Source: a virus. Taken from it: a DNA stretch of 64,000 bases. Location: positions 32,001-96,000 of the IMG/VR virus record IMGVR_UViG_3300025015_000010; one strand, given 5' to 3'. Positions 41,758-64,000 of this stretch are shown one piece after another. How positions within the stretch are numbered: position 1 is the stretch's first letter; the number at the start of each line of letters is the position of its first letter. The notes beneath the pieces were generated by a model. It ran no database searches and was not told where the DNA came from. It saw only the letters and a program-made list of their open reading frames with translations. The position numbers and the translations under genes were made by a program.

Positions 41758-42414
41758 ATCAAATACCCGCGTACACCATATCTAACCTGTTCACCTACAA
41801 TCGACGAATCCGACCGACTTACGGTCGATCTCGCTTGCCTCTGTAACAAGCCTTTGGTCGCAACGATCAAGCTTGACGGCTCCAATGTGCAGCTGACTTG
41901 GAATCATGTCGCCGCCCGTAACGGGGCCACAGCCAACCATCCTAGTTTCAATATGTTAAAGCAGATCCATGCCCAAATCAGGAATCAGATTCCTGAGAAT
42001 GTAACGGTCTATGCTGAGTGGTGTTATGCTAAGCACAGCATTCACTACACAGGTGAATTGGCACTTAGGTCGTTGCTTCGTTTGTTTGGTGTTCATGATG
42101 ATAGTCAAAAATTCTGGTATAGTTGGCAGGACGTAGAAGCCCTGTCTTTGAGCCTCGGATTAGATACTGTTCCCGTTATTGGGAAATTTTCTTTCAATTT
42201 TCCCGCCGAAGTGGTCGCAGAAAGTGGTAGACTACAGTATGGAATTATGTCTAAAGGACATGAGGGATTCGTGTTCAGATCCGCAGGCATGATTCCAGAC
42301 AGCGATTTTTCTACCAATATAGGTAAGTGGGTGCGTCCAAATCATGTCCAGACAGATGACCATTGGTCAAAAAGTTCAATTGTTAAGAACGAAGTCTCAC
42401 CGACAGGTATCTAG
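41758..42414 (+). CDS. ATP-dependent RNA ligase-family nucleotidyltransferase; begins at ATC
   Basis: KYPRTPYL, KLDGSN, YAEW, HSIHY, EGFV and KWVR..HVQT. Confidence 0.85.
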   Translation: MKYPRTPYLTCSPTIDESDRLTVDLACLCNKPLVATIKLDGSNVQLTWNHVAARNGATANHPSFNMLKQIHAQIRNQIPENVTVYAEWCYAKHSIHYTGELALRSLLRLFGVHDDSQKFWYSWQDVEALSLSLGLDTVPVIGKFSFNFPAEVVAESGRLQYGIMSKGHEGFVFRSAGMIPDSDFSTNIGKWVRPNHVQTDDHWSKSSIVKNEVSPTGI

Positions 42415-43246
42415 GCTGTCAGGTTTATTGGACGTTGTACCCACCGACTTAGATATAAGATTGGGCAATGATTCAGCAGCCAAGGTCGAAAAAGATCTTG
42501 GTGGGTTACTTAATGATCCTAAAATCACCGCCTATGTCTCCGCAGTAGGTAAAAAAGTAGCAGCTAATTCGAAGCTGCCTAATCTTCCTTATTCATTTCA
42601 TGTCATTAATAATAAAGTCATCAATGCCTTTGCATTGCCAGGCGGTCGTGTTTACGTGACCAAAGGGCTATTGGATACTTTGTCTACCGAAGCGCAGCTA
42701 GCCGCTGTCCTGGGGCATGAAATAAGCCATGCAGCAGCCCGTCATGGTATTCAGCAAACTGCGGCTACTCTCGGGCTTAATACTGTGTCACTGGCCTTAG
42801 CTGGCAATAACGCAGCTAAGCAGGCTATGACAGGCGTAGTTAGTAGCCTAGTTACAGCACAGTACAGTCAGAGTCAAGAAAGCGAAGCCGATATCTTAGG
42901 TTTAGATGCCGCTGTAAAATCAGGCTACAACCCGTTTGGTGCAGTCGAGGTTATGCAAATACTGCAAGCTAAAGGTGGTAATCAGAACGTCGATTGGTTT
43001 GCCTCACATCCGCTGACGTCTACTAGGGTAGCCGAGTTGAAAGGAACAATCCTAGGCAGCGGCTATACCAACACAGGCGAAGTCGGCGCAGAACGTTATC
43101 AGGTAATTATGAGTAGAACCGTTGCGGATAAGCCAAGTATTTTTGGATTACCTAGCTGGGTGATGCCGGTGGTGATTGCCATACCATGGACAGTAGTGGT
43201 TGCTGTAGGACTAGCCATGTTTAAAAGGAAGAAGGTGAAAGCGTGA
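42344..43246 (+). CDS. M48 Zn metallopeptidase with C-terminal TM; start uncertain
   Basis: NAFALPGG, HEISH, ESEAD and SHP...R. Confidence 0.9.
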   Translation: MSRQMTIGQKVQLLRTKSHRQVSRLSGLLDVVPTDLDIRLGNDSAAKVEKDLGGLLNDPKITAYVSAVGKKVAANSKLPNLPYSFHVINNKVINAFALPGGRVYVTKGLLDTLSTEAQLAAVLGHEISHAAARHGIQQTAATLGLNTVSLALAGNNAAKQAMTGVVSSLVTAQYSQSQESEADILGLDAAVKSGYNPFGAVEVMQILQAKGGNQNVDWFASHPLTSTRVAELKGTILGSGYTNTGEVGAERYQVIMSRTVADKPSIFGLPSWVMPVVIAIPWTVVVAVGLAMFKRKKVKA

Positions 43247-43887
43247 AAACCAATATCGATCTTCTCAGGTTCATGCCTAGGCATGTGCAAACCAGGGATC
43301 AGTATAATGATTCGTGGGTTGTGCAACACATGCAGGCTATCAAATCACCTAAAACACTGCAAGAGCAAGCCTTGGTAAGTTTGCTGTCAGGGCTGCTACT
43401 GTATGCCGACTACCTGGAGTCAGTAGGCTATATTGCAGCCGAAGACGACGCACTAGGTTCTGTGTGGCTCGATATGGCTGACAGGATAAAAGCGTTGCTA
43501 GATGGTGACGTGGGTCGCCTTGATACAGGTGTGCTGCTAGTTATATTGGATCGAGTTAGAGCCAGACAAGGATTTGAGGCTGAATAATGAAAACATCTAG
43601 TTCGGAGGGCAGCAGACGTGTTGACTCTACTGGCCTTCTTTTTTACTGGCTTGATCCAGGATTTTCTTGTAACGCTTAATTGGCGTTATGTTGCTAAGCA
43701 AAAGATCGCGCCAGCAGCATTAATGTCCTGTCTGACAACTTTCGTAGGTATGACTGTATTTTATAACATTATTCATGACAATTGCGGTCTTGTGGTGATT
43801 CTAGTTTATGCTTTGGGCGTTGCTGCTGGGACCGTGATAGCAATGAAGTGCAGGTGGGGATTCAATGACAAAAGCAAGCTTAGATAA
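43243..43887 (+). other. hypothetical CDS (43243-43587) and small membrane protein (43618-43887)
   Basis: ORF track; hydrophobic segments. Confidence 0.65.
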
Positions 43888-44257
43888 ATTGTTTAAATTG
43901 GCTAACAAGCGATATCCCCATGCAGGCAGCACGGTAAGTGGATTACTAGTTCGTGGGCAGGCCGACAATCAGGAGTCCATCGAAGCTAGTCTGACTGACT
44001 ATAAAATTCTGCCGGGAGTACGTGAAGTTCCAACGGGTGACTTTGACGCCGATCCTAGGCACATGTACTATGATGTCTACGACCTAAAACGATGTGAAGA
44101 ACTGGCGTTGGAAATTAGCATTAAAGGTTGGATTTCGCCTTTGATTGTTGTTATAGACGAGCACGGTCCTTATGTACTGGAAGGCGGTCACAGACTTGGT
44201 GCAATGTATTTATCTGGCACAAAATCATTTCCTGCTTTAGTAGTTGTGGGTGAGTAG
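43865..44257 (+). CDS. ParB/Srx-like N-domain protein
   Basis: ISPLIV...VLEGGHRL.A. Confidence 0.7.
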   Translation: MTKASLDKLFKLANKRYPHAGSTVSGLLVRGQADNQESIEASLTDYKILPGVREVPTGDFDADPRHMYYDVYDLKRCEELALEISIKGWISPLIVVIDEHGPYVLEGGHRLGAMYLSGTKSFPALVVVGE

Positions 44258-44631
44258 AATGCCACCATACGTTGATAAGTCAATCTATTTTGATTCTGCA
44301 CTGGATAGATTTAGCGAGAATTACCCTGTGTCCGGTTTGATATCAGATTCGTTTCAGATCAATAAAAATTTTATCGCTTTTGTGAATATATACGAGCCAT
44401 TTTCTAGTGGTGCTAAAATTTTTGTAGTGCCAATAAGCGACGCGGATAACTTGCCAACTCGTAGTAAAGATTTAACTGTTAGATGCATAGCAAAATATGC
44501 AATTGGTGGCGTTATTTTGGCGGACTGTACAGTGATATCTATTTTTGCAGACAAATTATGGCAGTCTTTGATGAGATATGGTCAAGTAGTCGATGCCTAT
44601 GATCGGTATTTACTTTTATGCAAGGAGTAAT

Positions 44632-45429
44632 ATGCCAACACGGAAGCAAATAAAGGATTTTGAAAAGACCTTGCTATTTCATGGCACAATCGAACCGTTT
44701 GATACTGCGCTCGAACCGCAGAGTCACGGCGGTTGTTTGTGGGTCGCATTTACGTCTACGATAGCTCAGAGTTATATACCAGCGAGTGGCGGGGCACAGT
44801 GGTTAAATATTGATGCACATAGGCTGGACGAGCTTTTGCGGCCAAGTAAAAATAAATTCTGGGTCGCAGTCTATGACTTGATGAGAATAAAACCTAGATC
44901 AGATACTGAGTATGATGCTTGGGACAGATCTACCTTTTGGGCATGGGAAGGTGATCATGCATACTGGCCTACGTACCGAGATGTTGTAGATTTTTTCGAT
45001 AGCATCGGATATTATGGTAAGCGTGATAAGTATAGCTATATATACGAGATTAGGACAGGCTATGCTGATCATCGGGAGATTGTTTATCCGGCAGATTACA
45101 AAAAACCTGGCAGACTGTTTATTTTTTACGGACAAGAGCATTTAAACATTTTGAACATTTCACGCGGAGAGAGCGATTTAACTGATCTACAGTATCATAA
45201 GTACAATGTGTTTAAACAGGCTAAAGAGCAAGGTTATGACGGTGTGAGAATTGATGACTTTGCTCAGAGTAAGATTCACGGTAATTATGGTCATCAAAGC
45301 ATTTGCTTGAATGGCAATGGGCTAAAAAAATTGACCTATGATGTGATTCCAGCAACCAATTACGACGAGGAAGAATGGGCCGATTTTACACCCGAGTTTG
45401 AGCAGTATGCCAGAAAGGTATTGTGGTAG
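44632..45429 (+). CDS. ADP-ribosyltransferase-like (ART-PolyVal type)
   Basis: LFHGT...F...LWV...AQSY...GYDGV. Confidence 0.65.
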   Translation: MPTRKQIKDFEKTLLFHGTIEPFDTALEPQSHGGCLWVAFTSTIAQSYIPASGGAQWLNIDAHRLDELLRPSKNKFWVAVYDLMRIKPRSDTEYDAWDRSTFWAWEGDHAYWPTYRDVVDFFDSIGYYGKRDKYSYIYEIRTGYADHREIVYPADYKKPGRLFIFYGQEHLNILNISRGESDLTDLQYHKYNVFKQAKEQGYDGVRIDDFAQSKIHGNYGHQSICLNGNGLKKLTYDVIPATNYDEEEWADFTPEFEQYARKVLW

Positions 45430-45430
45430 A

Positions 45431-46576
45431 ATGCTAACTAATCCGCACGATCTAATTCAATATGGCGTCAATTATCTTATGAAGCAGTCAGAGGATAATT
45501 CTGCTTCAGTAAAGTCATATTTGGCTAAATATGCCAAGACTGATGATCTGAGCTACTTGCAATATGCTATTCAAAAGGCAGGTAACTGTGCAGGTAACTT
45601 TGATGCTAGTATGTGGCTTAGTGAGTTATATGCTTTTATCCACGACCCATATTTTATCGAAGCCGTAGAAAGTCTGTATCAGCAAATAGTGAAGTTTATA
45701 CGTTTGCCGCCAGCCGGTCAGGTGCGTAAGCGGTTTGATGAGGTGATGGCTGCATTTGATATCAATGTTCAAGGGTTGCGTTTGCCGAGAACAAAATACT
45801 ACGAAGAATATGGCGATCCCTTTATGCAGTTTATGGAAGAGTATGCCCGCTATTGGACTTTCTCATCAGCGGCTCACACATTGGAACAAATATTAGCTGC
45901 CGCACGGGCAGATGATGATGTGTCATGGAGTCGAGAACTACAGATGTTAGTATTGAATCGTAGCCGAGATTGGGCCGAGCGAATAACAGACAGGGATCTT
46001 GCTAATATTCTGGACAATATCAATTCGGAAATTTCCGGCCGTGATACTTACGGTCTGCGTAATCAGCAAGGATTTCCAGGAGATGCCACTAAGCTAGTCT
46101 GGAGTAATGGCTCGGCATCGTGGCATATATCCAGGACGCTAGGTACACAGTTATTAGACAAACATGTGTACAACCGCACCAGAGACATTCGACTCGATGC
46201 CAATGAGATCATTGTACCTTATCCGCCAGAAATAGTGGAAATGATACAGTCCTCTTTGTACCCGCTTCCGCTGTATGCATATAGTTTAGAGGGTAAAGGT
46301 CGAGCTAGAGCCAAGCATGCAGGCGAGCCGTTAGTTTCGGACAAGGAAGTCAAGATGATGATCAAATCGACATACAAACAGGCATATGGTGAGGATAAAC
46401 CGTTGCTTGATTATATGATTGACGGCGATTGGGCCAAATTTATGCAGTTCAAATCAGAGTCGTTTGATGAGACAGAACTTGTGGCTTATCTGGAAGACCG
46501 TGTTCGGTACGATGTGATCTATCCAGAATCGTTTAAGGCAAGAATCATTAATTGGTTTTTGAACAGGCAGATGTAA
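45431..46576 (+). CDS. hypothetical protein
   Basis: Long ORF. Confidence 0.75.
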   Translation: MLTNPHDLIQYGVNYLMKQSEDNSASVKSYLAKYAKTDDLSYLQYAIQKAGNCAGNFDASMWLSELYAFIHDPYFIEAVESLYQQIVKFIRLPPAGQVRKRFDEVMAAFDINVQGLRLPRTKYYEEYGDPFMQFMEEYARYWTFSSAAHTLEQILAAARADDDVSWSRELQMLVLNRSRDWAERITDRDLANILDNINSEISGRDTYGLRNQQGFPGDATKLVWSNGSASWHISRTLGTQLLDKHVYNRTRDIRLDANEIIVPYPPEIVEMIQSSLYPLPLYAYSLEGKGRARAKHAGEPLVSDKEVKMMIKSTYKQAYGEDKPLLDYMIDGDWAKFMQFKSESFDETELVAYLEDRVRYDVIYPESFKARIINWFLNRQM

Positions 46577-47103
46577 TGCAAAGTAGTTACGGAATAGACA
46601 CTGTGCATGATTGCAAGGATCGTGCAAAGATGACTGGCGCGAGTAATCCGAAGCTGATTAATGAGGGTGGCACCGCTCTTATTTTTTCATCGGACGACTT
46701 GGTTTATAAAGTGTATATGCATGGATTCCTGGAAAATACCTGTTCGGATTTTCTTTGTTTTACTCAGTTGTGGGATCATTATCCAAAATTTAGAAAGCAT
46801 CTTCCGAAAATCTATGCTGTAGATGCTAGGTATAGCGTGATAATTAAGGAATATGTACCTGGAGGTAATTGGCTAGAAGTTAACAATACAGGTAAAATGG
46901 CTATTAAGTACGATACTGTGATAGATGCTATTAAGTCTAAAAGCGCATCACTGGGATGGAGAGTTTTTGACCTGTCAGACCTGAATGTTATTTGGACAGG
47001 CAAAGACTGGGTTGTTATCGATTTTTATGCAGTGCCAGTAACAGAGGAAACTGAGAAGACGGTCATGGATTGTATGCTTAGTGTGAGAAACAATGCCTCC
47101 TAA
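46576..47103 (+). CDS. minimal protein-kinase-like protein (paralog of 48652)
   Basis: NEGGTALIF, VYKV, KEYVPG, DLSDLNV and VIDF. Confidence 0.75.
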   Translation: MQSSYGIDTVHDCKDRAKMTGASNPKLINEGGTALIFSSDDLVYKVYMHGFLENTCSDFLCFTQLWDHYPKFRKHLPKIYAVDARYSVIIKEYVPGGNWLEVNNTGKMAIKYDTVIDAIKSKSASLGWRVFDLSDLNVIWTGKDWVVIDFYAVPVTEETEKTVMDCMLSVRNNAS

Positions 47104-47608
47104 AGTCAAGTCCGTATACGAAGTATGTCCAGGTTTTGATGTCGAAATGGAAGACATGCTAGCTGATATAGTATCATTTCGTCGCCACAAGCCAGTAAAG
47201 ATTTTGCCTATACAAAAAGGCATAATTGCTGTGGTGATAAAAGATTTCTACCAGTATGGATTTGACTATTCAGTCTGGATTATGACCAAAGAAAATTATA
47301 GCAAGGTAAAAGGTTATTGCAAACTTAGCTATCTTCCTGCTATGGGAATAGTGCAGTTAGATCGTAATAATCGGCGCGTAGCAGACGAGCCCGCATTAGA
47401 CATAGTGAATTCTTACATGTTCCCATTTTATCGCGGACAGGGGATTATGAGAAACGCATACTTAGCTATTATACACTATTTTGGCAGTGTACGAAGCTAT
47501 GCGACACTGTCTAAAGATGCGTGGAATTTGTGGCAGTCATTGATGGATGAGCGGAGCATTAGCGTAGAAGACGATGGCCATCGCTGGCGAGCAGTGAGTC
47601 TAAAATGA
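47093..47608 (+). CDS. GNAT-like acetyltransferase
   Basis: YRGQGIM...Y...LS.DA..LW..L. Confidence 0.7.
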   Translation: MPPKVKSVYEVCPGFDVEMEDMLADIVSFRRHKPVKILPIQKGIIAVVIKDFYQYGFDYSVWIMTKENYSKVKGYCKLSYLPAMGIVQLDRNNRRVADEPALDIVNSYMFPFYRGQGIMRNAYLAIIHYFGSVRSYATLSKDAWNLWQSLMDERSISVEDDGHRWRAVSLK

Positions 47609-48225
47609 TCCCAGTTGTTCATTTCTCAAAATCGGCTGGTATATCTGAGGTTAGATCCGGAACTTTTTTCGCGGAGAATCCAGACTCAGTGCCTGTATTA
47701 AGGGCTGGTTTAGGCTCTTATGGTAAAGGTTACGTGTACGAAGCCGAGATAGACCCAATAAGTGCCATGGATCTTCTGGATTGGGAGCTATCTGGTAAGT
47801 TAGTTTGGGGGTCAAAAATATTAAGAGCAGAAATTATTCGCATTATTAACAGCGCTAGGCATAAAGATCACAAGCGCCCCGTAACAGAGATACAAAAGCA
47901 GAAACAGTATTTGCTAGATTCGTATACGGTAATAGATGCCTTTCGAGTTGTGTGGCATTCACTGGATATGGGCACAGATGATGATATAGTGTCTGGTGTG
48001 TGGGATATGTGTTTTGATTATTCGGGAGCAATTAAGGAAATAGTCAAGGTAGCAAAGAAGTATCAAATAGCGTCTTTATGCTACGATACTCAAAAGGATA
48101 AAGCCGAGCGAGTATGGATCGCAATCGATCCGACAGTAGTAAGCAATCTGAGACTAGCAAAGAAGTACGCTGAGTACACAGAAGCAGAACTAGACGAATT
48201 GGGCACAGGAAGGCATCCTGGTTAA
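47605..48225 (+). CDS. possible ART-like protein
   Basis: VVHFS...GTFFA...YG..YVYEAEI...WIAIDP. Confidence 0.5.
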   Translation: MIPVVHFSKSAGISEVRSGTFFAENPDSVPVLRAGLGSYGKGYVYEAEIDPISAMDLLDWELSGKLVWGSKILRAEIIRIINSARHKDHKRPVTEIQKQKQYLLDSYTVIDAFRVVWHSLDMGTDDDIVSGVWDMCFDYSGAIKEIVKVAKKYQIASLCYDTQKDKAERVWIAIDPTVVSNLRLAKKYAEYTEAELDELGTGRHPG

Positions 48226-48247: not shown

Positions 48248-48652
48248 ATGGACACACGAGAACAGAATAATATTATCAAGCAGATGCGCGGCGAGCAGTG
48301 GAGACAGCAGGACGTTGGTGTATTTGATGAAGATGTAAGAACATTGATTTGGTATGGTCCAGGCGGTGTTGAAGGTGATTGTGCGTCTGAGTTGGAAGAC
48401 GAGGGTGGCTTTTGGCAGTTTAGTAGCTATCAACGTGTTGATGGTTATTTTGACGAGTACGATAAAGATTTTCCGTTCCTTAAAACCACTGTAAGTTTTG
48501 ATACTGTAAGTTTAAAAGATGCTTTAAAATTATTATGTATAAGTACAAAATTAGACAGACTTGGTCTGGCTCTATATGCGGCTGACTATGGCCAGGCAGC
48601 ACTGGCCTATTATGGCAGCAGAGAAGAGATGGTAGAGGATCTACCAAGATAA
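48248..48652 (+). CDS. hypothetical protein
   Basis: ORF track. Confidence 0.65.
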   Translation: MDTREQNNIIKQMRGEQWRQQDVGVFDEDVRTLIWYGPGGVEGDCASELEDEGGFWQFSSYQRVDGYFDEYDKDFPFLKTTVSFDTVSLKDALKLLCISTKLDRLGLALYAADYGQAALAYYGSREEMVEDLPR

Positions 48653-49164
48653 TGTCACACAGAGAATATGCTGCTAAGAAGAGGGCCAGGTTGGCAGGTG
48701 CAATTAAGCCTATATATGTAGATGAGGGCACACGATCAACTGTGTTCGAATCTAAAGGTTTTGCATATAAAGTCTACAACAAGTATAGCTATTACATGGC
48801 TTGCGCCGAGTTTTTGTGCCTGGGGCAACTCTGGGATCAGTTCCCAGAAGTCAGAAAGCACATACCTCGCATAGAGTTTCTGGATCGTGATAACGTTGTA
48901 CTAGTAAAAGAATTCATTAACGGGACTGTACTTAACGGTATGGATTATAGAATCGACGACGATCCTGGCCAACAAGCTAGGGAGCAAATTAAAGACGCAG
49001 CCAGTCAGCTAGGTTGGTTGGTAATTGATATGGAATATTATAGGAATGTTGTATTTGATGGCGAAAATTGGGTCATTATCGATATGTCACCGATTCCAGA
49101 CAGCGATAGTACACGGCAGCAGTTGAGCGAGTGTACCGCGCAGTTAGCTTTGCCAGAGGATTAG
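48652..49164 (+). CDS. minimal protein-kinase-like protein
   Basis: DEGTRSTVF, AYKV, KEFING, DMEYYRNV and IIDM. Confidence 0.75.
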   Translation: MSHREYAAKKRARLAGAIKPIYVDEGTRSTVFESKGFAYKVYNKYSYYMACAEFLCLGQLWDQFPEVRKHIPRIEFLDRDNVVLVKEFINGTVLNGMDYRIDDDPGQQAREQIKDAASQLGWLVIDMEYYRNVVFDGENWVIIDMSPIPDSDSTRQQLSECTAQLALPED

Positions 49165-49165
49165 A

Positions 49166-49903
49166 ATGTCAAAACCATCTTATGCTCTAATCAACATAGC
49201 CCAGAAGTATTGGGAAATGATCGAGGCCTACAGCGATCTACCTTCAGGTCAGTTGCCTACTCGGGAAAACAGCCTGGGATGTGGGTCGTGGGGCTGTGCG
49301 TGGATGTCAGGCGATCCAAGATATGTGATCAAAATCAGCCGTGATCCAACAGAAGGCCCAACAGTAGCCGCGATACAGCATTTTGTAGGCAACCGTCAAG
49401 ATAGTTATCCAGGGTTGGCTATTATCAAGGCAGTTTGGCGGCTACCCGAGAAGATGGTCTACGGGGGTAAATCTCGGGATGTTTATGCTGTAGTGCGAGA
49501 AGCAGTCCAGCCTCTAGACTACCTTGGTTATCGTGGCAGGTCTAATTCAGATGATTATATCATACGTGAGACATCATTAGGCTTAACGCATTTGCGTGAT
49601 TATGTTAATGCAGGCATAGAATATAAGCAAGTGAAGAGAAATAAAGCCTGGTATTTTGATAAAATGAGAGATTCTGCTGTCGAGATGTACAATTACGAGC
49701 CTACCTATTACATAGCCGCAGCCTTAGAAGAACTACTCGATGCGGAAATTACATTGACTGATATACATCAAGGCAACATAGGATATCGTCTGATTGATTG
49801 GGATACAAATGGTAAGTTTGAACTTGCACCAAGCAATAGCCTACTGATCTTTGATTTTGGCCACTCAACTGTGCAGTTTGAAGTTCCTGTTTTGGGCGAG
49901 TGA
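49166..49903 (+). CDS. protein-kinase-like protein
   Basis: LGCGSWGCAW, VIKI, DIHQGNIG and FDFG. Confidence 0.8.
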   Translation: MSKPSYALINIAQKYWEMIEAYSDLPSGQLPTRENSLGCGSWGCAWMSGDPRYVIKISRDPTEGPTVAAIQHFVGNRQDSYPGLAIIKAVWRLPEKMVYGGKSRDVYAVVREAVQPLDYLGYRGRSNSDDYIIRETSLGLTHLRDYVNAGIEYKQVKRNKAWYFDKMRDSAVEMYNYEPTYYIAAALEELLDAEITLTDIHQGNIGYRLIDWDTNGKFELAPSNSLLIFDFGHSTVQFEVPVLGE

Positions 49904-50631
49904 TGATTCTATATCACGGTACAACGCTTCAGAATCTACAGAGTATTTTAGAACACGGCTTGATAGCTGGTAAGGGAAATAGTCTGCACAGAACAAAGAC
50001 ACGCAGTATGTTGTTTCTTGCAGGCGATATTCAAGGTGCGTTTGTATATGCGTCACCGGATTGTTATGATTCTAGTCGTGCAGATAAGACGCCTGTAGTG
50101 CTCGAAATCATATTGTCAGATGCATCTAAATTAGAACCCGACTATGACGATATAGACATAGGCAGTGTTTTGGATTATTTAAGAGAATTGGCCGAAAGTT
50201 TGGATATAGACCCATTGGAAATCTCACTAGATACGCCACTAGATGATACTTTGTATGAGCGAGTCAGCAGCAGAATATACAGAGACAAGATGGATTACGG
50301 GTATACGGGCATACGAGTTGATACAAATGACAATTTGAGAACTTTGTATGTTGATCCACTTGTATTTTTGTATATTGCATTAGAAGATATAGACCCAGAA
50401 ATTTTGGACGACGGTACTATAGACTGGGAAGATTCAGGCCTACCTGGGCTGTGGACACGTCAGTACAGGTATAACGGTAAAATTCCGACCTCAGACATTA
50501 GAGCAGTATGGTCGCCAGAAGGCGTAGCACCTAGTAATGGGAGATTAATGTCGATCAAGAATTATGCATGCTGGTCCGATGATAGAACAGAGCCACAAAA
50601 GGTTAACATGATAAGAAATTTGGTGTGGTGA
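49900..50631 (+). CDS. ART-like protein (Tpt1/KptA-like)
   Basis: LYHGT...SILEHGL, LFLA, A..YA, VVLEI and QYRYNGKIP..DI. Confidence 0.7.
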   Translation: MMILYHGTTLQNLQSILEHGLIAGKGNSLHRTKTRSMLFLAGDIQGAFVYASPDCYDSSRADKTPVVLEIILSDASKLEPDYDDIDIGSVLDYLRELAESLDIDPLEISLDTPLDDTLYERVSSRIYRDKMDYGYTGIRVDTNDNLRTLYVDPLVFLYIALEDIDPEILDDGTIDWEDSGLPGLWTRQYRYNGKIPTSDIRAVWSPEGVAPSNGRLMSIKNYACWSDDRTEPQKVNMIRNLVW

Positions 50632-51395: not shown

Positions 51396-51427
51396 TGGTA
51401 GACTTAATATAGGTAAACAGCCCCTGG

Positions 51428-53092: not shown

Positions 53093-53488
53093 ATGAAAAT
53101 TATTACACATGCTTGGGACGATATTGACGACAGAGATAATCTTTTGAGTATAGTTAGTCAGGTTAGGGCAGATGCAGAACGTGAGTGGGTCACAAAAGAG
53201 TGCGATTCGGAAGGAAGTTGTATTATTTGTTCGGCTATGCTGGCCGATAAATTACGCGAGGCCGGGTTTACAGCCAGAGATGTTCACGGCGCCTATATGG
53301 CACCAAACAGGCTGTGGTTTAATGATAATAATGTGAGTAGGCATAATTTTCATGGCGCTCACCACTGGTTTGTAATAGTGGATGATTTCTACATCGTCGA
53401 TATAACGGCCGATCAGTTTCACAGAGGCGAAGATGGCTATGAGATTGTCATTTCGGACGTAAACGATTTTAAGCACTACGATTTTTAA
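53093..53488 (+). CDS. transglutaminase/papain-like Cys-His-Asp protein
   Basis: GSCIICS...HHWF...VDITADQF. Confidence 0.55.
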   Translation: MKIITHAWDDIDDRDNLLSIVSQVRADAEREWVTKECDSEGSCIICSAMLADKLREAGFTARDVHGAYMAPNRLWFNDNNVSRHNFHGAHHWFVIVDDFYIVDITADQFHRGEDGYEIVISDVNDFKHYDF

Positions 53489-55372: not shown

Positions 55373-55727
55373 AAATAAATCCAACACCGACAATCTACAA
55401 ACCGACGGACAAGCCCAAGGAAGACTTAAAAGAAAAGCCGTGCAAGAAACCATCGAGTTTCTTCAAGGCTTTGCAAAAAGAAATCAAGAAAGGCAGGAAG
55501 TAATGGACGCTAGAAAAGACGTTCAAAATGCGCGCGACGCCGTTCAGTATGCTGCATCTGTATGGACTCGGCTGGCTTTAAGTGCCTAGTCATGAAGACG
55601 GAGGTGTGGCAGAAAATATATCTGATCTACTTACAGAGGCTTTGAGGTTAGTTCGATTGGCGTCGTCTAGGGCTAATGGTCTTGCTAAAGTTAATTACGA
55701 TCCAGATTTACTGTTTCCGGATTAAAT

Positions 55728-56111
55728 ATGGACGTTCCTGCATATCTATACCACGGTACTTTTAGGAGCCTTGTGCCAAGTATTTTGGAGCATGGCTTGT
55801 TAGCTGTGCCGAAAGATTGGCGTATATGGCCTAATTTTTCTAAAGAAGATTCTGTATATCTGGCCGATAATTACAGGTCAGCATTGGAATGGGCAAGAGA
55901 CGGACTTGGGCAAATCGAGTTAGCCCTAACGGATGGCACAGACTCTTTCGGCTATGGCACCGGATTGATGCTGAACGTCTTGAGGATAGAAACGAGAGGC
56001 TTGTATTTGTGGCTGCTGATAGAAGAAGCGCCAGTTAAATGGGGTGAGTACGGTAGAGAATACAGATATCGCGGCGATATTCCTCCAGAATTAATCACCG
56101 TACTGGATTAA
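55728..56111 (+). CDS. ART-like protein (Tpt1/KptA-like), paralog of 58253
   Basis: YLYHGT...SILEHGL, VYLA, VLRI and EYRYRGDIPPELI. Confidence 0.72.
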   Translation: MDVPAYLYHGTFRSLVPSILEHGLLAVPKDWRIWPNFSKEDSVYLADNYRSALEWARDGLGQIELALTDGTDSFGYGTGLMLNVLRIETRGLYLWLLIEEAPVKWGEYGREYRYRGDIPPELITVLD

Positions 56112-56478: not shown

Positions 56479-56500
56479 TTATTGTGGACAAAATAAATAT

Positions 56501-57673
56501 ATGATATTAGGACACAAAATCAGGCTGGACCCTACATGCAGGCAAGTTAAGTTATTTAACCGAGCTTGCGGCGTTGCACGTTTCACATATAACTGGGCAT
56601 TGGCCGAGTGGAATAAACAGTACGATGCCGGTCAGAAGCCAAGCATATCTAATCTTATAAAACAATGGAATAAGATTAAGGGCGCGGAGTTTCCTTGGGT
56701 TTATGATTCACCTAAAGGCGCTAATCAGAGACCATTCACTTGTCTGAGGGCTGCGTTCTCCGGGTTCTTTAAGAAGCAGACAAAATACCCAAAGTTCAAG
56801 AAGAAATTTGTTCACGACTCATTTTATGTCGAAAATGATAAGTTCCATTTTATTGGCGATGCCCACGTACGTTTGCCTAAAATCGGCACGGTAAAAACTT
56901 GTGAGAAGTTACGTTTTACGGGTAAGATTATGGGCGCAGTAGTGTCTAGAATCGCAGATCGCTGGTTTATTGCAGTCCAAGTCGATGTTGGCGACTACCA
57001 TAAACCCAGAACCGGCAATGGCATAGCAGGTACAGATTTGGGGCTTATCACAGCAGCTACGATTGCTGTTAGTGATACGAAAACGATCAAGATAAAATCG
57101 CCGAAGCCGCTAAAGAAAGCATTATCAAAGCTTAGACGAATTAACCGGAAATTTTCAAGACAACAGAAAGGATCAAAACGCCGAGAAAAGACCCGGCGCA
57201 GACTGGCTAGACTGCATTTTCGAGTCAGTAACATTCGTAGAGATTTTACACAGAAGCTTACAACTCGACTCTGCCGCGAGAACCAAGTGGTAGTTATTGA
57301 GGATTTGAACGTGAAAGGCATGCTTAGCAACCATTGTCTTGCGCGTTCTTTGAATGACATTGGATTCTCTGAAATCAGACGCGAGCTTGGCTACAAGAAT
57401 CCAATCTATGATATGCAACTCGTTGTTGCAGATCGCTGGTTTCCGTCTTCAAGACAGTGTAGAATGTGTCTACATGTCAACAAAAATCTTGCACTCAGGG
57501 ATCGTATCTTTGTGTGTCCGAAGTGTAATCATACAGAAGACAGAGACGATCAGGCAGCATATAATTTACGTACCCTCGGCTTGAGGGAAATTCACGCTCA
57601 GGGAGAGGCCATGGCTTCGAGCACCCTCGACGAACTGAGAACTAACCCGTACTCACAAATGAGTACAATTTAG
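56501..57673 (+). CDS. tnpB: stand-alone TnpB (IS1341/IS607-derived); no tnpA; element ends not resolved
   Basis: N-terminal HTH, GTDLG, VIEDL, FPSS..C and DRDDQAA. Confidence 0.93.
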   Translation: MILGHKIRLDPTCRQVKLFNRACGVARFTYNWALAEWNKQYDAGQKPSISNLIKQWNKIKGAEFPWVYDSPKGANQRPFTCLRAAFSGFFKKQTKYPKFKKKFVHDSFYVENDKFHFIGDAHVRLPKIGTVKTCEKLRFTGKIMGAVVSRIADRWFIAVQVDVGDYHKPRTGNGIAGTDLGLITAATIAVSDTKTIKIKSPKPLKKALSKLRRINRKFSRQQKGSKRREKTRRRLARLHFRVSNIRRDFTQKLTTRLCRENQVVVIEDLNVKGMLSNHCLARSLNDIGFSEIRRELGYKNPIYDMQLVVADRWFPSSRQCRMCLHVNKNLALRDRIFVCPKCNHTEDRDDQAAYNLRTLGLREIHAQGEAMASSTLDELRTNPYSQMSTI

Positions 57674-57699
57674 AGAGCAGTATAGGATGGAATGGTGAT

Positions 57700-58266
57700 A
57701 TGCATCTCATAAACACTGTCCCTGTTGAAGGTCATCCAGAGCTAAAGCTAGCTTTGTGGGTAAGAATGTTTTATGGCGAAGTTGCGTACAAGGATTTTCC
57801 AGGTACTATCGAAGTAGGTTCCGCAAGATTTGCACTGTTGCCTAAACGAATAGATAGACGGGCTATTGAGCGGTCAAATGGCTCTCAAATGATATCGGAG
57901 GTGGGTCATATTGGCATCGGTTTGTTCAGGCCAGTATATTCGAGTTATCGAAAAATGCTAGACAGTTTTGATTACGAGCACGAACTTTTTGCGATGGTGA
58001 AATATGCAGAAATTACCGACCCAGAAGCACGCAAACACGGTTTGGGCTCTGCCATGTACATTACGGCTGTACGAGAACTTGGTGTGTTATTAGCCGATAC
58101 GACCTGGAGTGAAGGTGCCGAAAAGCTGTGGGAAAAATTACACACTAGGCACAAGTGTGTGTCGGTCGAGACTTGGGACCAGATATTTTTGACGCCTATA
58201 GCCATATGGAATTGTAGTAAATCAAGGCAGAATAAGTTTTGGAGGCAGGTCGATGAAATTGCCTGA
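57700..58266 (+). CDS. GNAT-like acetyltransferase
   Basis: ARKHGLGSAMY...SEGAEKLWEKL. Confidence 0.7.
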   Translation: MHLINTVPVEGHPELKLALWVRMFYGEVAYKDFPGTIEVGSARFALLPKRIDRRAIERSNGSQMISEVGHIGIGLFRPVYSSYRKMLDSFDYEHELFAMVKYAEITDPEARKHGLGSAMYITAVRELGVLLADTTWSEGAEKLWEKLHTRHKCVSVETWDQIFLTPIAIWNCSKSRQNKFWRQVDEIA

Positions 58267-58609
58267 ATATCTCTATCACGGTACGTACAGTACACTGGTC
58301 GAACATATTATGGCTAACGGTTTGATCCGTGTGCCCAGGGATTGGCGAATCTGGCCGAGTCATGCCGAGATCGAGTGTGTCTATTTGACTAGTGATCCAC
58401 ACAATGCGCTGCACTGGGCGCTCCAGGGACTCGATAAACTTGATTATATGGATAACTATCGCAGTAAATACAATATTCTGCCAGTAGCGCTTCAAATTAA
58501 TAAGGCAGGCATAAACATGGATTTGTTATTAGAAGATACCAACATGAGTAACAAACAAGATTTTTGCTACGCGGGTGACATTGAGCCGATGTGGATCGAG
58601 GTAGTTTGA
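58253..58609 (+). CDS. ART-like protein (Tpt1/KptA-like)
   Basis: YLYHGT...IMANGL, VYLTSD and DFCYAGDIEP..I. Confidence 0.72.
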   Translation: MKLPEYLYHGTYSTLVEHIMANGLIRVPRDWRIWPSHAEIECVYLTSDPHNALHWALQGLDKLDYMDNYRSKYNILPVALQINKAGINMDLLLEDTNMSNKQDFCYAGDIEPMWIEVV

Positions 58610-59316
58610 TGGGCAGAATAATTGCAATTCATGACGTGGCATATAATAAACAGAGTGTGTCTAATAAGCTGATTCGTCAGATACTAGATTATGGCTCGTT
58701 ATTGCCAGCATCGATGCGGGATCGTTGGAAGCAGATTGGCGCGTTCGATTATTTAGCCGGTGACGCTGATTACGTATTTTTGTCTTTGTATGACGGGCTC
58801 GATGACTCCGAGTACGGTATTGGATTTAATAAGTCGGCATTTTGGTTTGATGCCGAGCACTTGATCAAGCTAGGCGCAATAGTTAGAGACTATGATCTGT
58901 TAGATGATTACTTCATTGTAGCCGAAGACGCCGCGCTTGAAATTATCAATTTCGACGTCACAGGTAATCGATATAAAAACATTGAAGACCACGTAGATGT
59001 CTTAGACCTGATACAATGCGCCGTGATGCACAACATAAATAGTAGGCTTGATCCTAAGGCTTTGGTTGATTATTCCGGTAAACAAGCATATCCATGGTAT
59101 AAGAAACTCGCCAAAGATGGCTTGATATCTCCAATGCTAGATGCCGTTCACTGTGCGCTAGTAGAATATAAAAAGCAGTATAATCACGTAGGTAAAGATG
59201 CAATTAGAGAGCTACATAATGCAATGGACCATGCCACAGGCACAGAAATCTTATGGCACGGTCCACTTCCGCTGTTATATGCTCTTCCAGAATCCCCTGC
59301 TTTTCGGGTGAAGTGA
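58609..59316 (+). CDS. DarT-like ART family, paralog 2
   Basis: AIH, GSLLP, DYLAGDADYVFL, AFWFD and EILWHGPLP. Confidence 0.6.
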   Translation: MGRIIAIHDVAYNKQSVSNKLIRQILDYGSLLPASMRDRWKQIGAFDYLAGDADYVFLSLYDGLDDSEYGIGFNKSAFWFDAEHLIKLGAIVRDYDLLDDYFIVAEDAALEIINFDVTGNRYKNIEDHVDVLDLIQCAVMHNINSRLDPKALVDYSGKQAYPWYKKLAKDGLISPMLDAVHCALVEYKKQYNHVGKDAIRELHNAMDHATGTEILWHGPLPLLYALPESPAFRVK

Positions 59317-59927
59317 TGTATGCAGTCCACAGCATAACTTACCATAGAAACTCAGATCCAGACGAGATCATTCATCAGATTCTTGCCACGGGTAAACTAT
59401 TGCCGCTCGCAGATCGTCTGCCAGTAGACGAGACAGGTATGCAGCCCGTTGATGTGTTTGCCGGGGATCATTATTTTGTTTTCCTTCGAGTTCGAGATTC
59501 TTGGCCTAACCAGTCTTCGGCATTTGTATTCGATGCCGAAGATTTGATAGCGCGTGGAGCAGCCTTTAGAAAAAGCGATCTGTTGCTGAGTTATTGGGCA
59601 GAAGCAAAGTCAGTAATAGACGAATTTAGATTGATAGATGCTTTTAATGCTACCGAGTGCGGTATATTACAAGACTTGATGCACTACGTCGATGATAAGT
59701 TTGAAGAACCATATATGCGTTATTATGGGGATTCCCAGGCCCGTACTGTGGTAAGGATATTGCAAGCTAGGCTGGGTCAGATTGCCGAAGAAGGTACATA
59801 CTACGGTAAAGAGGCCCTGAGATTGCTGTCCGACCCAAATTCTAGGTCAGGATATAGCGAGTTAGTCTGGCGAGGTCCGCTGCCAATTAGTTTAGCACTT
59901 CCAGAATCACCTGTGTTTCAAAGGTAA
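59316..59927 (+). CDS. DarT-like ART family, paralog 3
   Basis: AVH, GKLLP, DVFAGDHYFVFL, AFVFD and ELVWRGPLP. Confidence 0.6.
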   Translation: MYAVHSITYHRNSDPDEIIHQILATGKLLPLADRLPVDETGMQPVDVFAGDHYFVFLRVRDSWPNQSSAFVFDAEDLIARGAAFRKSDLLLSYWAEAKSVIDEFRLIDAFNATECGILQDLMHYVDDKFEEPYMRYYGDSQARTVVRILQARLGQIAEEGTYYGKEALRLLSDPNSRSGYSELVWRGPLPISLALPESPVFQR

Positions 59928-60453: not shown

Positions 60454-61212
60454 GTGGCCAAAAAATCACATTTACGTAAGCACAGTCCGAAAGCCGCTTG
60501 GGACATACAATCCTGGCTGGCAAGTTATCTAAATACAGACGTGGATATCTATGATTTTTCGTGGACTATCCGTGAGTTCTTAGCAGATCAAGAAATTGAG
60601 TCCGATGCTGAGTATGTTGAAGATTTGACTGAGCAACAGCAGGTCGAATTCAAAGATTGGCTGTTGAGGGATAGTAAAATAGACAACATCTGTCAGGGTC
60701 AAGAAGTAGACTGTCCATCATATTTAATGTTCAGGGACGCTCGGGTACTCCCTAAAGGTACTTGGCTAGTACATTTTTCTAGCAAGTATTTTAGCCAGTT
60801 TAAGTACGGTTCAAACTATGAGCGGTTGCATCTGTCAACATGGTTCATTAAAAAGCATAAAGTTAAGTCTAACAATCTCAGTGATGAAATTGGTGCTGCT
60901 GAAGTAGTATTCGGTTTTGCTTTTGATACGGATCAGATGAATCGTATTATATGTCATGGTCACAGGTTTGGTAAGCACGTTAAGCTATTCCAATGTGATA
61001 TGGCAGTAGAAGCATACCATACTAGCGACGGCTATAGACAGGTTATTTTCCCTCTTGGCAGTGAGTATAACGTGATTGATCTATCCGAGGTATATAGTAA
61101 TGGCAACATTGATGTTGAGTTAAGTGGCGGCGACGTAATCAGGGTAGACAGTGTCTCAGAAGTTATTGATCTAGCAGCACATGGCAGAATCGAAGTGAGT
61201 AATTACACATGA
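60454..61212 (+). CDS. hypothetical protein with a possible ART-like C-terminal half
   Basis: WLVHFS...FAF...FG...QVIF. Confidence 0.45.
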   Translation: MAKKSHLRKHSPKAAWDIQSWLASYLNTDVDIYDFSWTIREFLADQEIESDAEYVEDLTEQQQVEFKDWLLRDSKIDNICQGQEVDCPSYLMFRDARVLPKGTWLVHFSSKYFSQFKYGSNYERLHLSTWFIKKHKVKSNNLSDEIGAAEVVFGFAFDTDQMNRIICHGHRFGKHVKLFQCDMAVEAYHTSDGYRQVIFPLGSEYNVIDLSEVYSNGNIDVELSGGDVIRVDSVSEVIDLAAHGRIEVSNYT

Positions 61213-62189
61213 GACCTATTTTTGCAATGCCTAAATATAGACCGTTCTCGGCCGTTATAACCAGCCACAGAGATGGCTGGCTATATGGTCATTCTGGTGA
61301 TGAGTATGATGTGTATAGACCTTTGCATATGACCTTAGACGGTTGGATGTACGCTACGCATTCATTTGGTCAAGTACTGACCAATGGTAAGTCTGTCTTT
61401 GGTGCAATCAGAAAGTCAGGTTATTTGTTGCCGGAAATAGACCGTAATTCAGCTACGCTCAAACGTAGTCCCACGGGGCAAGGCTCTATGTTTCCAATCG
61501 ATGCGATTGCTGGTGATGATAAGCTAGTATTTTTTCGCCCAGGATCACCACTCCCTGGCGCTGGTGCTTTCTTCTTCGCCGCCAGGTCGTTGATACTGGA
61601 TTTCGGAGGTAGAGTAGGCACGGATATATTAGGCGATTACAAGAGAATATTGGAAAAAGCGATGGCCGATTTTGGGTTACCATACAATAAATGGACTCAT
61701 GCACGAGAGAGCATAAAGCATAAAGAACTCGATTTGCTGGAACAGATGAAAGGTGAGCTAACTGGAGACGAAGCCTACAAAATGCGTGACGAGATTTTTA
61801 CAAAGTTTGATTCTGATCTTCGTTGGGCTATCCTAGATTTGCCACAAGAAATTGTTGAGGAATTCTATGTGCGCGTGCAAAGGTTTCGTGATACTGAACG
61901 ATCAGGTGGACTAGAAGCAGCAGATTTCGTGGACAGACTAGAGGCTCAGCAGGCTATTGGTTACCCAGGAGCGGCAATTAACTATTCAGAAAGATACGAG
62001 ATCACCGTCGAAGGTCGCGTGCCTATTGATAGCGCATTTGGGTGGATGTATAACACTACAAACGGAGTAGACTTTGGTTTTCGAGAGGAATTCTATCCGT
62101 ATTACGAGTATGTTGAATTGTTAGATAGAGCAGTCGCTAGCAGATTGAACCCAGATACGTATTTTCTTGAGGATGTGGTGAACATATGA
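61209..62189 (+). CDS. DarT-like ART family, paralog 4
   Basis: ATH, GYLLP, DAIAGDDKLVFF, AFFF and EITVEGRVP. Confidence 0.6.
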   Translation: MRPIFAMPKYRPFSAVITSHRDGWLYGHSGDEYDVYRPLHMTLDGWMYATHSFGQVLTNGKSVFGAIRKSGYLLPEIDRNSATLKRSPTGQGSMFPIDAIAGDDKLVFFRPGSPLPGAGAFFFAARSLILDFGGRVGTDILGDYKRILEKAMADFGLPYNKWTHARESIKHKELDLLEQMKGELTGDEAYKMRDEIFTKFDSDLRWAILDLPQEIVEEFYVRVQRFRDTERSGGLEAADFVDRLEAQQAIGYPGAAINYSERYEITVEGRVPIDSAFGWMYNTTNGVDFGFREEFYPYYEYVELLDRAVASRLNPDTYFLEDVVNI

Positions 62190-62996: not shown

Positions 62997-63002
62997 TTTG
63001 GC

Positions 63003-63557
63003 ATGCTTAAACCAGGTATAACTTATGCAGAAGAACTTCAGCACGCTTTAGCTCTTGCCGAGAACTGCAAATGGCTACTGGCTAAAAAGCTGAAGCAGGA
63101 ATATATGCCAGTAGTTAAGCCACAAATTGTTTGGAATACTAGACTTGGGACCACGGCTGGTAATTGCCGTACAAGAAACAAGCGCGACTATGCCAGAATG
63201 TCTCATGTAATCGAACTTAACCCTAAGCTTCTGATCGATGCCATAAAATTCAAAAGAACTCTAGTACACGAGTTAGCCCACGCAGTGACTATCGAATTGT
63301 GGCCCAGGTCTAAGCATCACGGGCGTGAGTGGAAAGCTGTAATGAGGTACATGCTAGCAGAGCCAGCAAGGTGTCATTGTTATGATACGAGTCATATCAA
63401 GCGCAGGCAGACTAGAGCCGAGATTCAATGCTCCTGCGGGAAGATATTCACACTCAGTAAGAACTGTTATACCAGGATGACCAACGGCACTACGGGCTAT
63501 AGACACAAGGAATGTAAGCGCAATCTGATCGATGCAAAATTTGTCAGGTACGTTTAG
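63003..63557 (+). CDS. SprT-like Zn metalloprotease
   Basis: TTAG, HELAH, HG.EWK..M and Zn ribbon. Confidence 0.9.
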   Translation: MLKPGITYAEELQHALALAENCKWLLAKKLKQEYMPVVKPQIVWNTRLGTTAGNCRTRNKRDYARMSHVIELNPKLLIDAIKFKRTLVHELAHAVTIELWPRSKHHGREWKAVMRYMLAEPARCHCYDTSHIKRRQTRAEIQCSCGKIFTLSKNCYTRMTNGTTGYRHKECKRNLIDAKFVRYV

Positions 63558-63607
63558 TTGTGAATAGTGGTAGACTTAAGATAGGCAGTGTTTAGAAAGG
63601 AAAAATC

Positions 63608-63856
63608 ATGGCAAAGCGAAGAAGTTCAAAGAAGTTATCTTATCGTGAGCAGCTAATAAAGAAAATCAAAGCCGCTTGGAAGAAATATGATCACGCTTAT
63701 ACCTCTGGTGATGCTAGAGAAGCTAAGTTAGAGGCAATCTACTGCACTGAAAACCTGGGCGGCGTAGCCTGTGCTTCCTGGAAAACATACAGAGACTCCT
63801 GGGCAGGTAAAGAGTGGATTAGGCGGGAAGAAATAAGGCAAAATACGAGAGCATAG
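63608..63856 (+). CDS. basic hypothetical protein
   Basis: RBS; TGGTAGACT -10 at 63571. Confidence 0.65.
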   Translation: MAKRRSSKKLSYREQLIKKIKAAWKKYDHAYTSGDAREAKLEAIYCTENLGGVACASWKTYRDSWAGKEWIRREEIRQNTRA

Positions 63857-63865
63857 AGCTACTTA

Positions 63866-64000
63866 ATGATTAACGGCATCAAATTTTTAGCATGGCATAG
63901 TGTTGGTAGTGACGATGTTAAAGCTACAATCAAGCAGATAGTCAAGCGAGGTTTCTTGCTGCCTGCTTCGATGCGCACAGGTAGAACTTGCAAGATTCAG
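63866..64000 (+). CDS. DarT-like ART family, paralog 6 (runs off the window end)
   Basis: MINGIKFLAWHSV...IKQIVKRGFLLPASMR matches the paralog 2 N-terminus (RQILDYGSLLPASMR). Confidence 0.6.
   Translation, partial: MINGIKFLAWHSVGSDDVKATIKQIVKRGFLLPASMRTGRTCKIQ

Follow-up and report, generated by a model that had tools for sequence, protein, structure and literature searches.

Layout of the island

We analysed a window of 64,000 nucleotides (nt), positions 32,001 to 96,000 of the IMG/VR virus record IMGVR_UViG_3300025015_000010, which contains an island of small enzyme-like genes at 42344-64000 on the plus strand. The record is 168,734 bp long and ~77% complete, and it represents a large uncultured phage. 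Coordinates are those of the window throughout, and genes are named by their first position. The island consists of ~33 tightly packed open reading frames (ORFs) of 82-392 amino acids (aa), every one of them a single-domain gene with its own start and stop. At ~24 of 35 junctions, neighbouring genes overlap or lie ≤4 nt apart, often as ATGA. Beyond the window end the island continues to ~65231 (~23 kb and ~35 genes overall): the sixth member of a gene family that we call family B (from 63866) is followed by a gene resembling ART-PolyVal, an ADP-ribosyltransferase (ART) family, then by a secreted glucosaminidase-like gene and by minus-strand transposon cargo. The original prediction for this DNA had described a 22-kb island of stand-alone modifying enzymes, all co-oriented and mostly translationally coupled. 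The island is real and its genes are mostly coupled in this way, but the shared orientation is not strictly true because one TnpB gene (51428-52663) lies on the minus strand.

An all-against-all comparison revealed four paralogue families: family A (55728, 58253 and the longer 49900), family B (50625, 58591, 59316, 61209, 62186 and the gene at 63866), a pair of kinases and a pair of HExxH proteins. No member of any of the four was found elsewhere in the record. Megablast of the island against GenBank phages returned zero matches, and we compared it with the islands of three related contigs, L007 (50 kb, JGI), L010 (17 kb, Logan) and L023 (15 kb, JGI). For 26 orthologue pairs between the window and two related contigs we calculated nonsynonymous (dN) and synonymous (dS) divergence, with dS estimable in 18. 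Across these 18 pairs dN was 0.07-0.44, dS exceeded 1.3 (saturated) and dN/dS was 0.04-0.22, and such low ratios indicate that the genes are real and under strong purifying selection.

A DarT-like family of predicted ADP-ribosyltransferases

The six family B genes are as follows:

50625-51395, plus strand: family B paralogue, DarT-like ART by paralogy and the family B alignment
58591-59316, plus strand: family B paralogue, DarT-like ART; orthologue in L023 only (66% identical)
59316-59927, plus strand: family B, DarT-like ART, the modelled member (AlphaFold2 predicted local distance difference test (pLDDT) 89, predicted template modelling score 0.85)
61209-62189, plus strand: family B paralogue with N- and C-terminal extensions; orthologues in L007, L010 and L023 at 71-77% identity
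62186-62965, plus strand: family B paralogue, DarT-like ART; orthologues at 64-79% identity
63866-64000, plus strand: N-terminus of the sixth family B paralogue (237 aa in full), which continues past the window end

A profile search of 1.84 billion cluster representatives identified 248 relatives of family B at E ≤0.001. Family B relatives elsewhere lie in phage-like contigs. The AlphaFold2 model of 59316-59927 was built from an alignment of 140 of the 248. When this model was compared exhaustively with 48,161 PDB chains using VIA, DarT occupied the top four places (Z 9.0, 8.5, 7.7 and 7.2) with superpositions of ~120 residues at a root-mean-square deviation (rmsd) of 3.2-3.5, followed by OspC3, CopC, SopF and Tpt1. 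The top five Foldseek matches were also DarT (E 0.05-0.2). By predicted fold, family B belongs to the ART superfamily, the split beta-sheet core of the model being matched over the whole domain. Sequence searches found no match to family B in Pfam, PHROG, NCBIfam or the PDB (the last with profiles from 6 and from 140 sequences), and none by tblastn in 50,697 GenBank phage records. The Pfam DarT profile (PF14487) matched none of three family B members at E ≤10 and nothing in a six-frame search of the record, which places family B outside the Pfam DarT family. No macrodomain of the DarG type was detected at E ≤1 in the record, which is ~77% complete.

Conservation among 140 homologues was highest at H5 (124 of 125), D46 and D51 (139 of 140 each), F/Y at position 56 and D88 (140 of 140 each) and E182 (136 of 138). 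Together with G50 and F72, these residues are each found in 92-100% of family B sequences and are kept by all six paralogues. In DarT the catalytic residues are H13, Y71 and E160 (PMC9967889), and the order of the His, the aromatic strand and the C-terminal Glu in family B appears to fit an ART of the H-Y-E type, with residue equivalence judged from order and position. In the alignment, an Arg ~20 residues ahead of the Y/F strand, a possible counterpart of the catalytic R51 of Thermus DarT, was present in 50 of the 57 family B sequences that have this column and in four of the six paralogues. The paralogues share 33% identity in the N-terminal core compared to 13% in a helical insert of ~65 residues, which is likely to be a target-recognition element.

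Larger proteins carry the same domain too. It is repeated three times in tandem in a protein of 5358 aa, and single copies are found in a 1973-aa protein that also has Amidoligase_2 and RadC, in a 1523-aa protein that has trypsin domains and in a 588-aa protein that weakly matches ART-PolyVal. In three distant phage-like contigs, a gene of 76-85 aa overlaps the preceding family B homologue by 4 nt (L012:5726-5956, L013:5696-5953 and L014:3883-4140) and could encode a partner or immunity protein. No small partner ORF was seen beside the six paralogues of the island.

A minimal Tpt1/KptA-like family and further candidates

Family A has three members in the window:

49900-50631, plus strand: long member of family A, with a Tpt1-like core, a ~90-residue insert and a C-terminal tail (PARP E 0.0013 and Tpt1 E 0.017, both to the N-terminal motif only)
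55728-56111, plus strand: family A, the modelled member, minimal ART by Foldseek and VIA
58253-58609, plus strand: family A paralogue, minimal ART (36% identical to 55728, E 3e-25; Tpt1 E 0.021)

This family has only 14 relatives in 5.8 billion proteins. The first 19 Foldseek matches listed for its model were Tpt1/KptA (best E 5e-4, probability 1.0), followed by pertussis S1, tankyrase, RES and Arr, and all 50 of the 50 best VIA matches were ART folds (KptA Z 8.6). The predicted structure, of moderate confidence (AlphaFold2 pLDDT 78), therefore has the ART core fold. The family alignment conserves Y-H-G-T, a V-Y-L strand and a C-terminal [E/D/Q]-[Y/F]-x-Y-x-G. Family A proteins, at 118-127 aa, correspond only to the C-terminal lobe of KptA (chain residues 92-180). 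The RNA-binding lobe is missing, and for this reason we do not regard them as Tpt1 enzymes. Matches to Tpt1/KptA (PF01885) reached 12.6-15.6 bits against a cutoff of 26, and the NCBIfam match reached 15.4 bits against 239.

Three further genes of the window are ART candidates of differing strength:

44632-45429, plus strand: ART-like gene (ART-PolyVal/RES/AcrIF11-like, ESM Atlas features 0.91), with a probable start at ATG 44632 within ORF 44593
47605-48225, plus strand: backbone gene of no assigned family, 206 aa, ART candidate by motif only
60454-61212, plus strand: gene of no assigned family, 252 aa, ART candidate by motif only (conserved WL-x-HF[ST], LST, VVFGFAF and QVIFP)

The nearest Atlas clusters of 44632-45429 were viral and annotated with ART-PolyVal (21-24% of members), RES and AcrIF11_ADP_ribosyl, its structure matches were RES and DUF3990, and its ten best matches with a named family all fell in one clan. 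Pfam gave no match, and we treat the ART-PolyVal/RES-like assignment as a lead. Just past the window end, the gene at L006:850-1431 matched ART-PolyVal (PF18760) at E 4e-6 with 28 bits, under the 31.2-bit cutoff, and BLASTP between 44593 and this gene gave E 0.15. The 47605 family has four homologues in 5.8 billion proteins and the 60454 family has seven, none of them with a Pfam domain. Using hhalign, alignments of 44593, 47605 and family B with family A each yielded short, non-significant motifs. A match of 60454 to SecD/F was judged spurious (NCBIfam 24 bits compared to a cutoff of 1878).

Kinases, acetyltransferase-like proteins, peptidases and other enzymes

The remaining enzyme-like genes, all on the plus strand, comprise the following:

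46552-47103, plus strand: minimal Bud32/RIO-like kinase (TIGR03724 (Bud32) E 4.9e-4, RIO1 E 0.011, PDB Ser/Thr kinase E 0.3)
48652-49164, plus strand: second Bud32/RIO-like kinase, 32% identical to 46552 (E 1e-31)
49166-49903, plus strand: protein-kinase-like enzyme with G-loop, Lys, DIHxGN and DFG motifs (dN/dS 0.06)
44244-44630, plus strand: degenerate GNAT-like paralogue of 47093, with ~48 residues deleted, including the acetyl-CoA motif R-x-x-G-x-G, and the frame open
47093-47608, plus strand: GNAT-like acetyltransferase candidate (PF00583 E 0.012, 16.3 bits against a 20.7-bit cutoff, motifs A-B)
57700-58266, plus strand: second GNAT-like candidate (hhalign to 47093 E 1.7e-4 over R-x-x-G-x-G and A-x-x-L-W; no Pfam match)
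42344-43246, plus strand: M48 zinc metallopeptidase (HExxH) with a C-terminal membrane anchor (PF01435 E 1e-37; L010 orthologue 80% identical; dN/dS 0.06)
63003-63557, plus strand: SprT-like zinc metallopeptidase (PF10263 E 9e-17; 88% identical in L007)
54348-54872 and 54869-55372, plus strand: tandem HExxH paralogues, zincin candidates by motif only (42% mutual identity); pair also in L023
53896-54351, plus strand: NUDIX hydrolase (PF00293 E 3.8e-9), in all four related islands
43865-44257, plus strand: ParB/Srx N-terminal-like protein with a GGHR box (PF02195 E 0.02, below cutoff; six of seven PDB matches ParB/Spo0J, E 0.07-1.8)
53093-53488, plus strand: Cys-His-Asp (transglutaminase/papain-like) candidate (PF01841 E 0.005, below cutoff)

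The M48, SprT and NUDIX assignments are firm. Gene 49166 is kinase-like by Atlas features and structure, scoring 0.96 for a T7 kinase (PF27024) viral cluster, with Pkinase, APH and RIO1 among its structure matches (TM up to 0.60); no direct Pfam match was found. A PARG-like assignment of this gene (G-x-W-G-C, E 0.22) was rejected, the N-terminal motif being the kinase G-loop site and the Atlas fold kinase-like. For the pair 46552/48652, a Bud32/RIO-like identity is weakly but concordantly indicated, and both family matches of 46552 are under the curated cutoffs. The G-loop, Lys, catalytic-loop and DFG motifs are recognizable in the kinase sequences. Gene 44244 may be an inactive or repurposed GNAT-like copy, to judge from its deletion. 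The ParB-N and Cys-His-Asp assignments are weak but consistent, and residues C43, H91, D103 and D107 of 53093 are shared with the L007 orthologue. The HExxH pair had no match in Pfam, PHROG, NCBIfam or the PDB. Profile searches of the PDB with the kinase pair, 49166, the GNAT pair, the Cys-His-Asp gene and the 60454 family returned nothing significant.

How far this inventory agrees with the original prediction differs between classes. About 12 ART-like genes had been proposed, and we count nine supported in the window and 11 in the whole island, or 13 when the two motif-only genes are included. The nine fall into three unrelated clades, namely the DarT-like family, the minimal Tpt1-like family and the ART-PolyVal/RES-like gene, and for families A and B the predicted folds do match ART. 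All three proposed kinases are retained, one by Atlas features and structure and the pair on weak Bud32/RIO matches. The two GNATs persist as a sub-threshold match (47093) and a link by hhalign only (57700), while two of the four zinc peptidases are firm and the other two have the HExxH motif only. The NUDIX hydrolase was confirmed, and the ParB-N and Cys-His-Asp proteins gave sub-threshold but consistent matches.

Gene exchange among related phages

Backbone genes of the island recur in every contig that covers their position. The M48 peptidase, the small membrane protein described below and the ParB-N gene are shared by the window and L010; 44593, 45398 and 47605 by the window, L007 and L010; and the NUDIX gene, family A 55728, gene 56116 and family B 59316, 61209 and 62186 by all four islands. 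Other genes come and go. SprT is present in L007 and not in L010, and L010 also lacks all three kinases and family B 50625. Only the window and L023 contain the HExxH pair, 58591 and 60454. L007 is without the GNAT-like 57700, retains only a 61-aa remnant of family A 58253 and carries extra ART-like, ParB-like and repeat-protein genes, and L010 has five family A copies. Because related phages share the backbone yet differ gene by gene, the genes are individually exchangeable, as the original prediction had supposed for an array of separate genes. Each family B paralogue has its own orthologue at 59-82% identity compared to 25-35% between paralogues; the duplications are old and each copy has been kept.

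Several differences lie at the edges and gaps of the island. In L010, a sigma-70-family gene (L010:170-1027) precedes the M48 gene by ~0.8 kb, a stretch that includes a 64-aa gene; the homologue of the sigma-70-family gene in the record (window 19109-19864, 42% identical) is 22 kb upstream, a displacement that marks the left edge of the island as a synteny break. The related islands also contain ParB-like genes marked by a G-N-H-R box (one or two, at L007:15725-16638 and L023:11829-12218), and their only homologue in the record is at ~150.6 kb of the genome, far from the island. A 355-nt gap at 55372-55727 of the window contains small ORFs of <60 aa. In L007 and L023, genes of 44 and 119 aa are called at this place, the latter from a repeat-protein family with several copies in L007 and L023 and none in the window.

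Other genes, insertions and flanking regions

The island and its left edge further include:

41724-41751, plus strand: sigma-70-like promoter with 12 of 12 consensus positions and a TG extension, intergenic, upstream of the RNA ligase gene and the island
41854-42414, plus strand: RNA ligase of the left flank (PF09414 E 9e-22), overlapping the M48 gene
43243-43587, plus strand: gene of no assigned family, 114 aa; a different gene occupies this position in L010
43618-43887, plus strand: small membrane protein (weak DUF5698 match, E 0.0016; L010 orthologue 88% identical)
45398-46576, plus strand: conserved backbone gene, 392 aa, no family match (83-86% identical in L007 and L010; dN/dS 0.04)
48248-48652, plus strand: gene of no assigned family, 134 aa, no orthologue in L007 or L010 (L023 does not reach this position)
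51428-52663, minus strand: TnpB, IS605-type (PF07282 E 1e-19 and PF01385), missing at this position in L007 and L023
53502-53894, plus strand: gene of no assigned family, 130 aa, no orthologue in L007, L010 or L023
56116-56478, plus strand: conserved backbone gene of no assigned family, 120 aa, always after the family A gene (79-88% identical in L007, L010 and L023; dN/dS 0.045)
56501-57673, plus strand: TnpB, IS605-type (PF01385 E 3e-28, PF07282 and HTH_OrfB), missing at this position in L007, L010 and L023
59931-60452, plus strand: gene of no assigned family, 173 aa, no orthologue in L007, L010 or L023
63608-63856, plus strand: small basic protein, 82 aa (L007 orthologue 68% identical)

The two TnpB-only insertions span 51396-53092 and 56479-57699, the minus-strand one lying directly upstream of the ATG of gene 53093, and the whole record contains four TnpB-like matches above the Pfam cutoff and a fifth weak one. 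The original prediction had noted neither insertion. Two plus-strand ORFs are probably spurious and were left out of the gene count, one antisense to tnpB (51443-52363) and one within the end of the insertion sequence (52683-53096). A second sigma-70-like promoter, matching 11 of 12 positions, is located at 52594-52621 (plus strand), inside the 5' end of the minus-strand tnpB and facing gene 53093; judging from its position, it could drive the downstream half of the island.

The RNA ligase gene is probably the first gene of the transcription unit, and other genes flanking the island are HD, DenV-like, ribonucleotide reductase (RNR), DNA polymerase A and helicase genes. Of ten larger ORFs scanned across the record, seven were matched (DNA polymerase A, two helicases, class II RNR, a methylase, an Rnl1-like ligase and a CCA-adding or poly(A) polymerase). 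Virion proteins were absent from the ten, and the structural module may sit in the portion of the genome, roughly a quarter, that the record does not include. Because its surroundings are replication, nucleotide-metabolism and RNA-repair genes and not virion genes, we place the island in the non-structural arm. An Rfam scan of 41000-64000 detected no RNA family, PHROGs gave no match for 20 island proteins and PADLOC gave one noise-level match only.

Possible functions of the island

Host-rewiring ARTs, kinases and acetyltransferases have been described in a few model phages, and most of the diversity of such phage enzymes is unannotated. We think it rather likely that the island is a hypervariable accessory region of the non-structural arm, encoding a battery of small, separately translated enzymes that would covalently modify or cut host macromolecules after infection. 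Such a battery may serve host takeover or counter-defence. Host RNA polymerase would start at the sigma-70-type promoter at 41724 and read through the long coupled operons. The ARTs would then spend nicotinamide adenine dinucleotide (NAD+) to ADP-ribosylate different host proteins or nucleic acids, and in the family B paralogues, where H...[Y/F]...E is retained and the helical insert is almost wholly divergent, the insert may set the target. The kinases and GNAT-like enzymes would attach phosphate or acyl groups, comparable to T7 gp0.7, the peptidases would cut host factors, and the NUDIX hydrolase would remove ADP-ribose or NAD-derived molecules.

Several observations weigh against this interpretation. 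No island gene matches a proven anti-defence protein above the level of a lead, and the nearest solved folds are a DNA-modifying toxin of a toxin-antitoxin (TA) system for family B and an RNA-repair enzyme for family A, which makes nucleic-acid targets or use by the phage itself possible. The GNAT, ParB-N and Cys-His-Asp assignments, the HExxH pair and two ART candidates are weak, being drawn from sub-threshold matches or motifs; for the latter two, 47605 and 60454, the call is unconfirmed and comes from conserved His, aromatic and acidic motifs only. Promoter-like sites overall are not above chance, the one at 41724-41751 being the only perfect one. The phage is also uncultured and very remote from cultured ones, with a family A DNA polymerase <30% identical to its best phage matches.

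A more specific proposal for family B is bolder, and we consider it unlikely. Under it, family B would be a new phage-borne branch of DarT-like ARTs, offensive and antidote-free, whose paralogues combine one catalytic core with unrelated helical inserts, each directed at a different host nucleic-acid sequence or protein, and whose module would also be arrayed in tandem inside giant injected proteins of other phages.

Of the competing explanations, the one that survives best, although we judge it improbable, is that the ART-fold, NUDIX and ligase genes act on phage or host RNA and DNA ends and on NAD-derived molecules, in repair or self-marking, and not on host proteins. It would account for the RNA ligase gene that heads the unit, the HD and DenV-like genes just upstream, the Rnl1-like ligase and the CCA-adding or poly(A) polymerase elsewhere in the record, and the presence of the NUDIX gene in four of four islands. 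The closest folds, Tpt1/KptA for family A and the DNA-modifying DarT for family B, point the same way, yet family A proteins are too short for the RNA-binding lobe and match KptA only at 92-180. Moreover, repair does not call for so many enzymes (at least nine diversified ARTs, besides three kinases and four peptidases), and the cassette turnover seen among the four islands is typical of conflict genes.

Slightly less probable still is that the island is a true disassembled polyvalent protein, descended from or recombining with a giant virion-packaged effector, whose products would work in the same way, weakening host defence after delivery or synthesis at entry. Clusters of small ORFs that encode polyvalent-type domains are indeed described near a polyvalent locus (PMC5512222), the family B domain is fused in the 5358-, 1973-, 1523- and 588-aa proteins, and a near-threshold ART-PolyVal match lies just beyond the window end. 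However, this sub-threshold match, outside the window, is the only ART-PolyVal match of the record besides the Atlas lead for 44632-45429, and in the record Kinase-PolyVal, MPTase-PolyVal and MuF had no match and the largest ORF is 671 aa, with no giant protein. The island is also embedded among early-type genes, and orthologues in related phages at 60-88% identity, compared to 25-35% between paralogues, imply that the genes have long been separate.

Least probable of all is that these are toxin cassettes for conflict between phages or mobile elements, acting in superinfection exclusion or addiction and not in host takeover: the closest relatives of solved structure are toxins, either of TA systems or of the effector type (DarT, RES, ParT and pertussis-like), some distant family B homologues precede the possible immunity gene of 76-85 aa with a 4-nt overlap and the region is rich in transposons, but no macrodomain or other visible antidote gene was found in the record, no partner ORFs lie beside the six paralogues, and the genes, which are conserved as orthologues across phages, belong to long coupled operons that also encode kinases and peptidases.

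With modification or cutting of host macromolecules still the favoured role, the island is a compact setting in which to study how the specificity of phage effectors diversifies, and whether effectors that stand alone and those fused in polyvalent proteins come from a common pool of domains. As a resource it provides two ART families without a Pfam or PHROG model, one of them with 248 cluster representatives in public metagenomes, six diverged paralogues sharing one conserved active site, and four phages that distinguish core genes from swapped ones.

Comparison with known systems

DarT (PF14487) is the best structural match of family B (Z 9.0 over 122 residues, rmsd 3.2), and the two share an N-terminal His, in an H-x-[IV] context in family B, and a Glu near the C-terminus (compare H13 and E160 of DarT). 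In contrast to DarT, family B has no Pfam DarT match and no DarG or macrodomain partner, carries a long helical insert and has an invariant D-x-x-A-G-D...D signature that is not described for DarT. Family A resembles the C-terminal ART lobe of Tpt1/KptA at 20-25% identity, with an HGT-type first motif, and differs in lacking the N-terminal RNA-binding lobe and in having three to five paralogues per phage. Gene 49166 groups with viral clusters of the T7 gp0.7 kinase family (PF27024, Phage_T7_kinase) and has kinase motifs, but it has no direct Pfam match to that family and is one of three kinases of two kinds in a single island.

Polyvalent proteins combine effector classes that include ART, kinase, GNAT, zincin peptidase and ParB/Srx domains (Iyer, Burroughs, Anand, de Souza and Aravind 2017; PMC5512222), and the original prediction was correct that the enzyme classes of the island are theirs. 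The same study noted that such domains also exist on their own and that small ORFs are grouped close to polyvalent loci, which it likened to recombining cassettes, and took the T7 kinase as a precedent for the kinases in polyvalent proteins (PMC5512222). The island shares with these proteins its catalytic domain classes and its setting of conflict, and the family B domain itself occurs within giant multidomain proteins. It differs in that two to fifteen effector domains are joined per polypeptide there and are separate genes here, and in having neither a MuF or virion context nor a Kinase-PolyVal or MPTase-PolyVal match; without the former, delivery is probably by early expression rather than injection. 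The predicted resemblance to a disassembled polyvalent protein is thus functional, and descent or a common mode of delivery is not supported.

Phages with many ARTs are already known. T4 encodes Alt, ModA and ModB, Bacillus phage G has at least 10 ARTs (PMC9503650), and ARTs occur in >40% of jumbo phages and are the commonest modifying domain of polyvalent proteins (PMC9503650). Like T4 and phage G, the phage described here has many fast-evolving ARTs, alongside NAD or ADP-ribose genes such as NUDIX. Unlike theirs, its ART families have no Pfam or PHROG model and lie with kinases and peptidases in one contiguous island. What is new, relative to these multi-ART phages, is the two unmodelled ART families with the six-fold diversification of one catalytic core, the presence of ARTs, three kinases and several peptidases side by side in a single coupled array, and the mosaic that this array forms across four phages.

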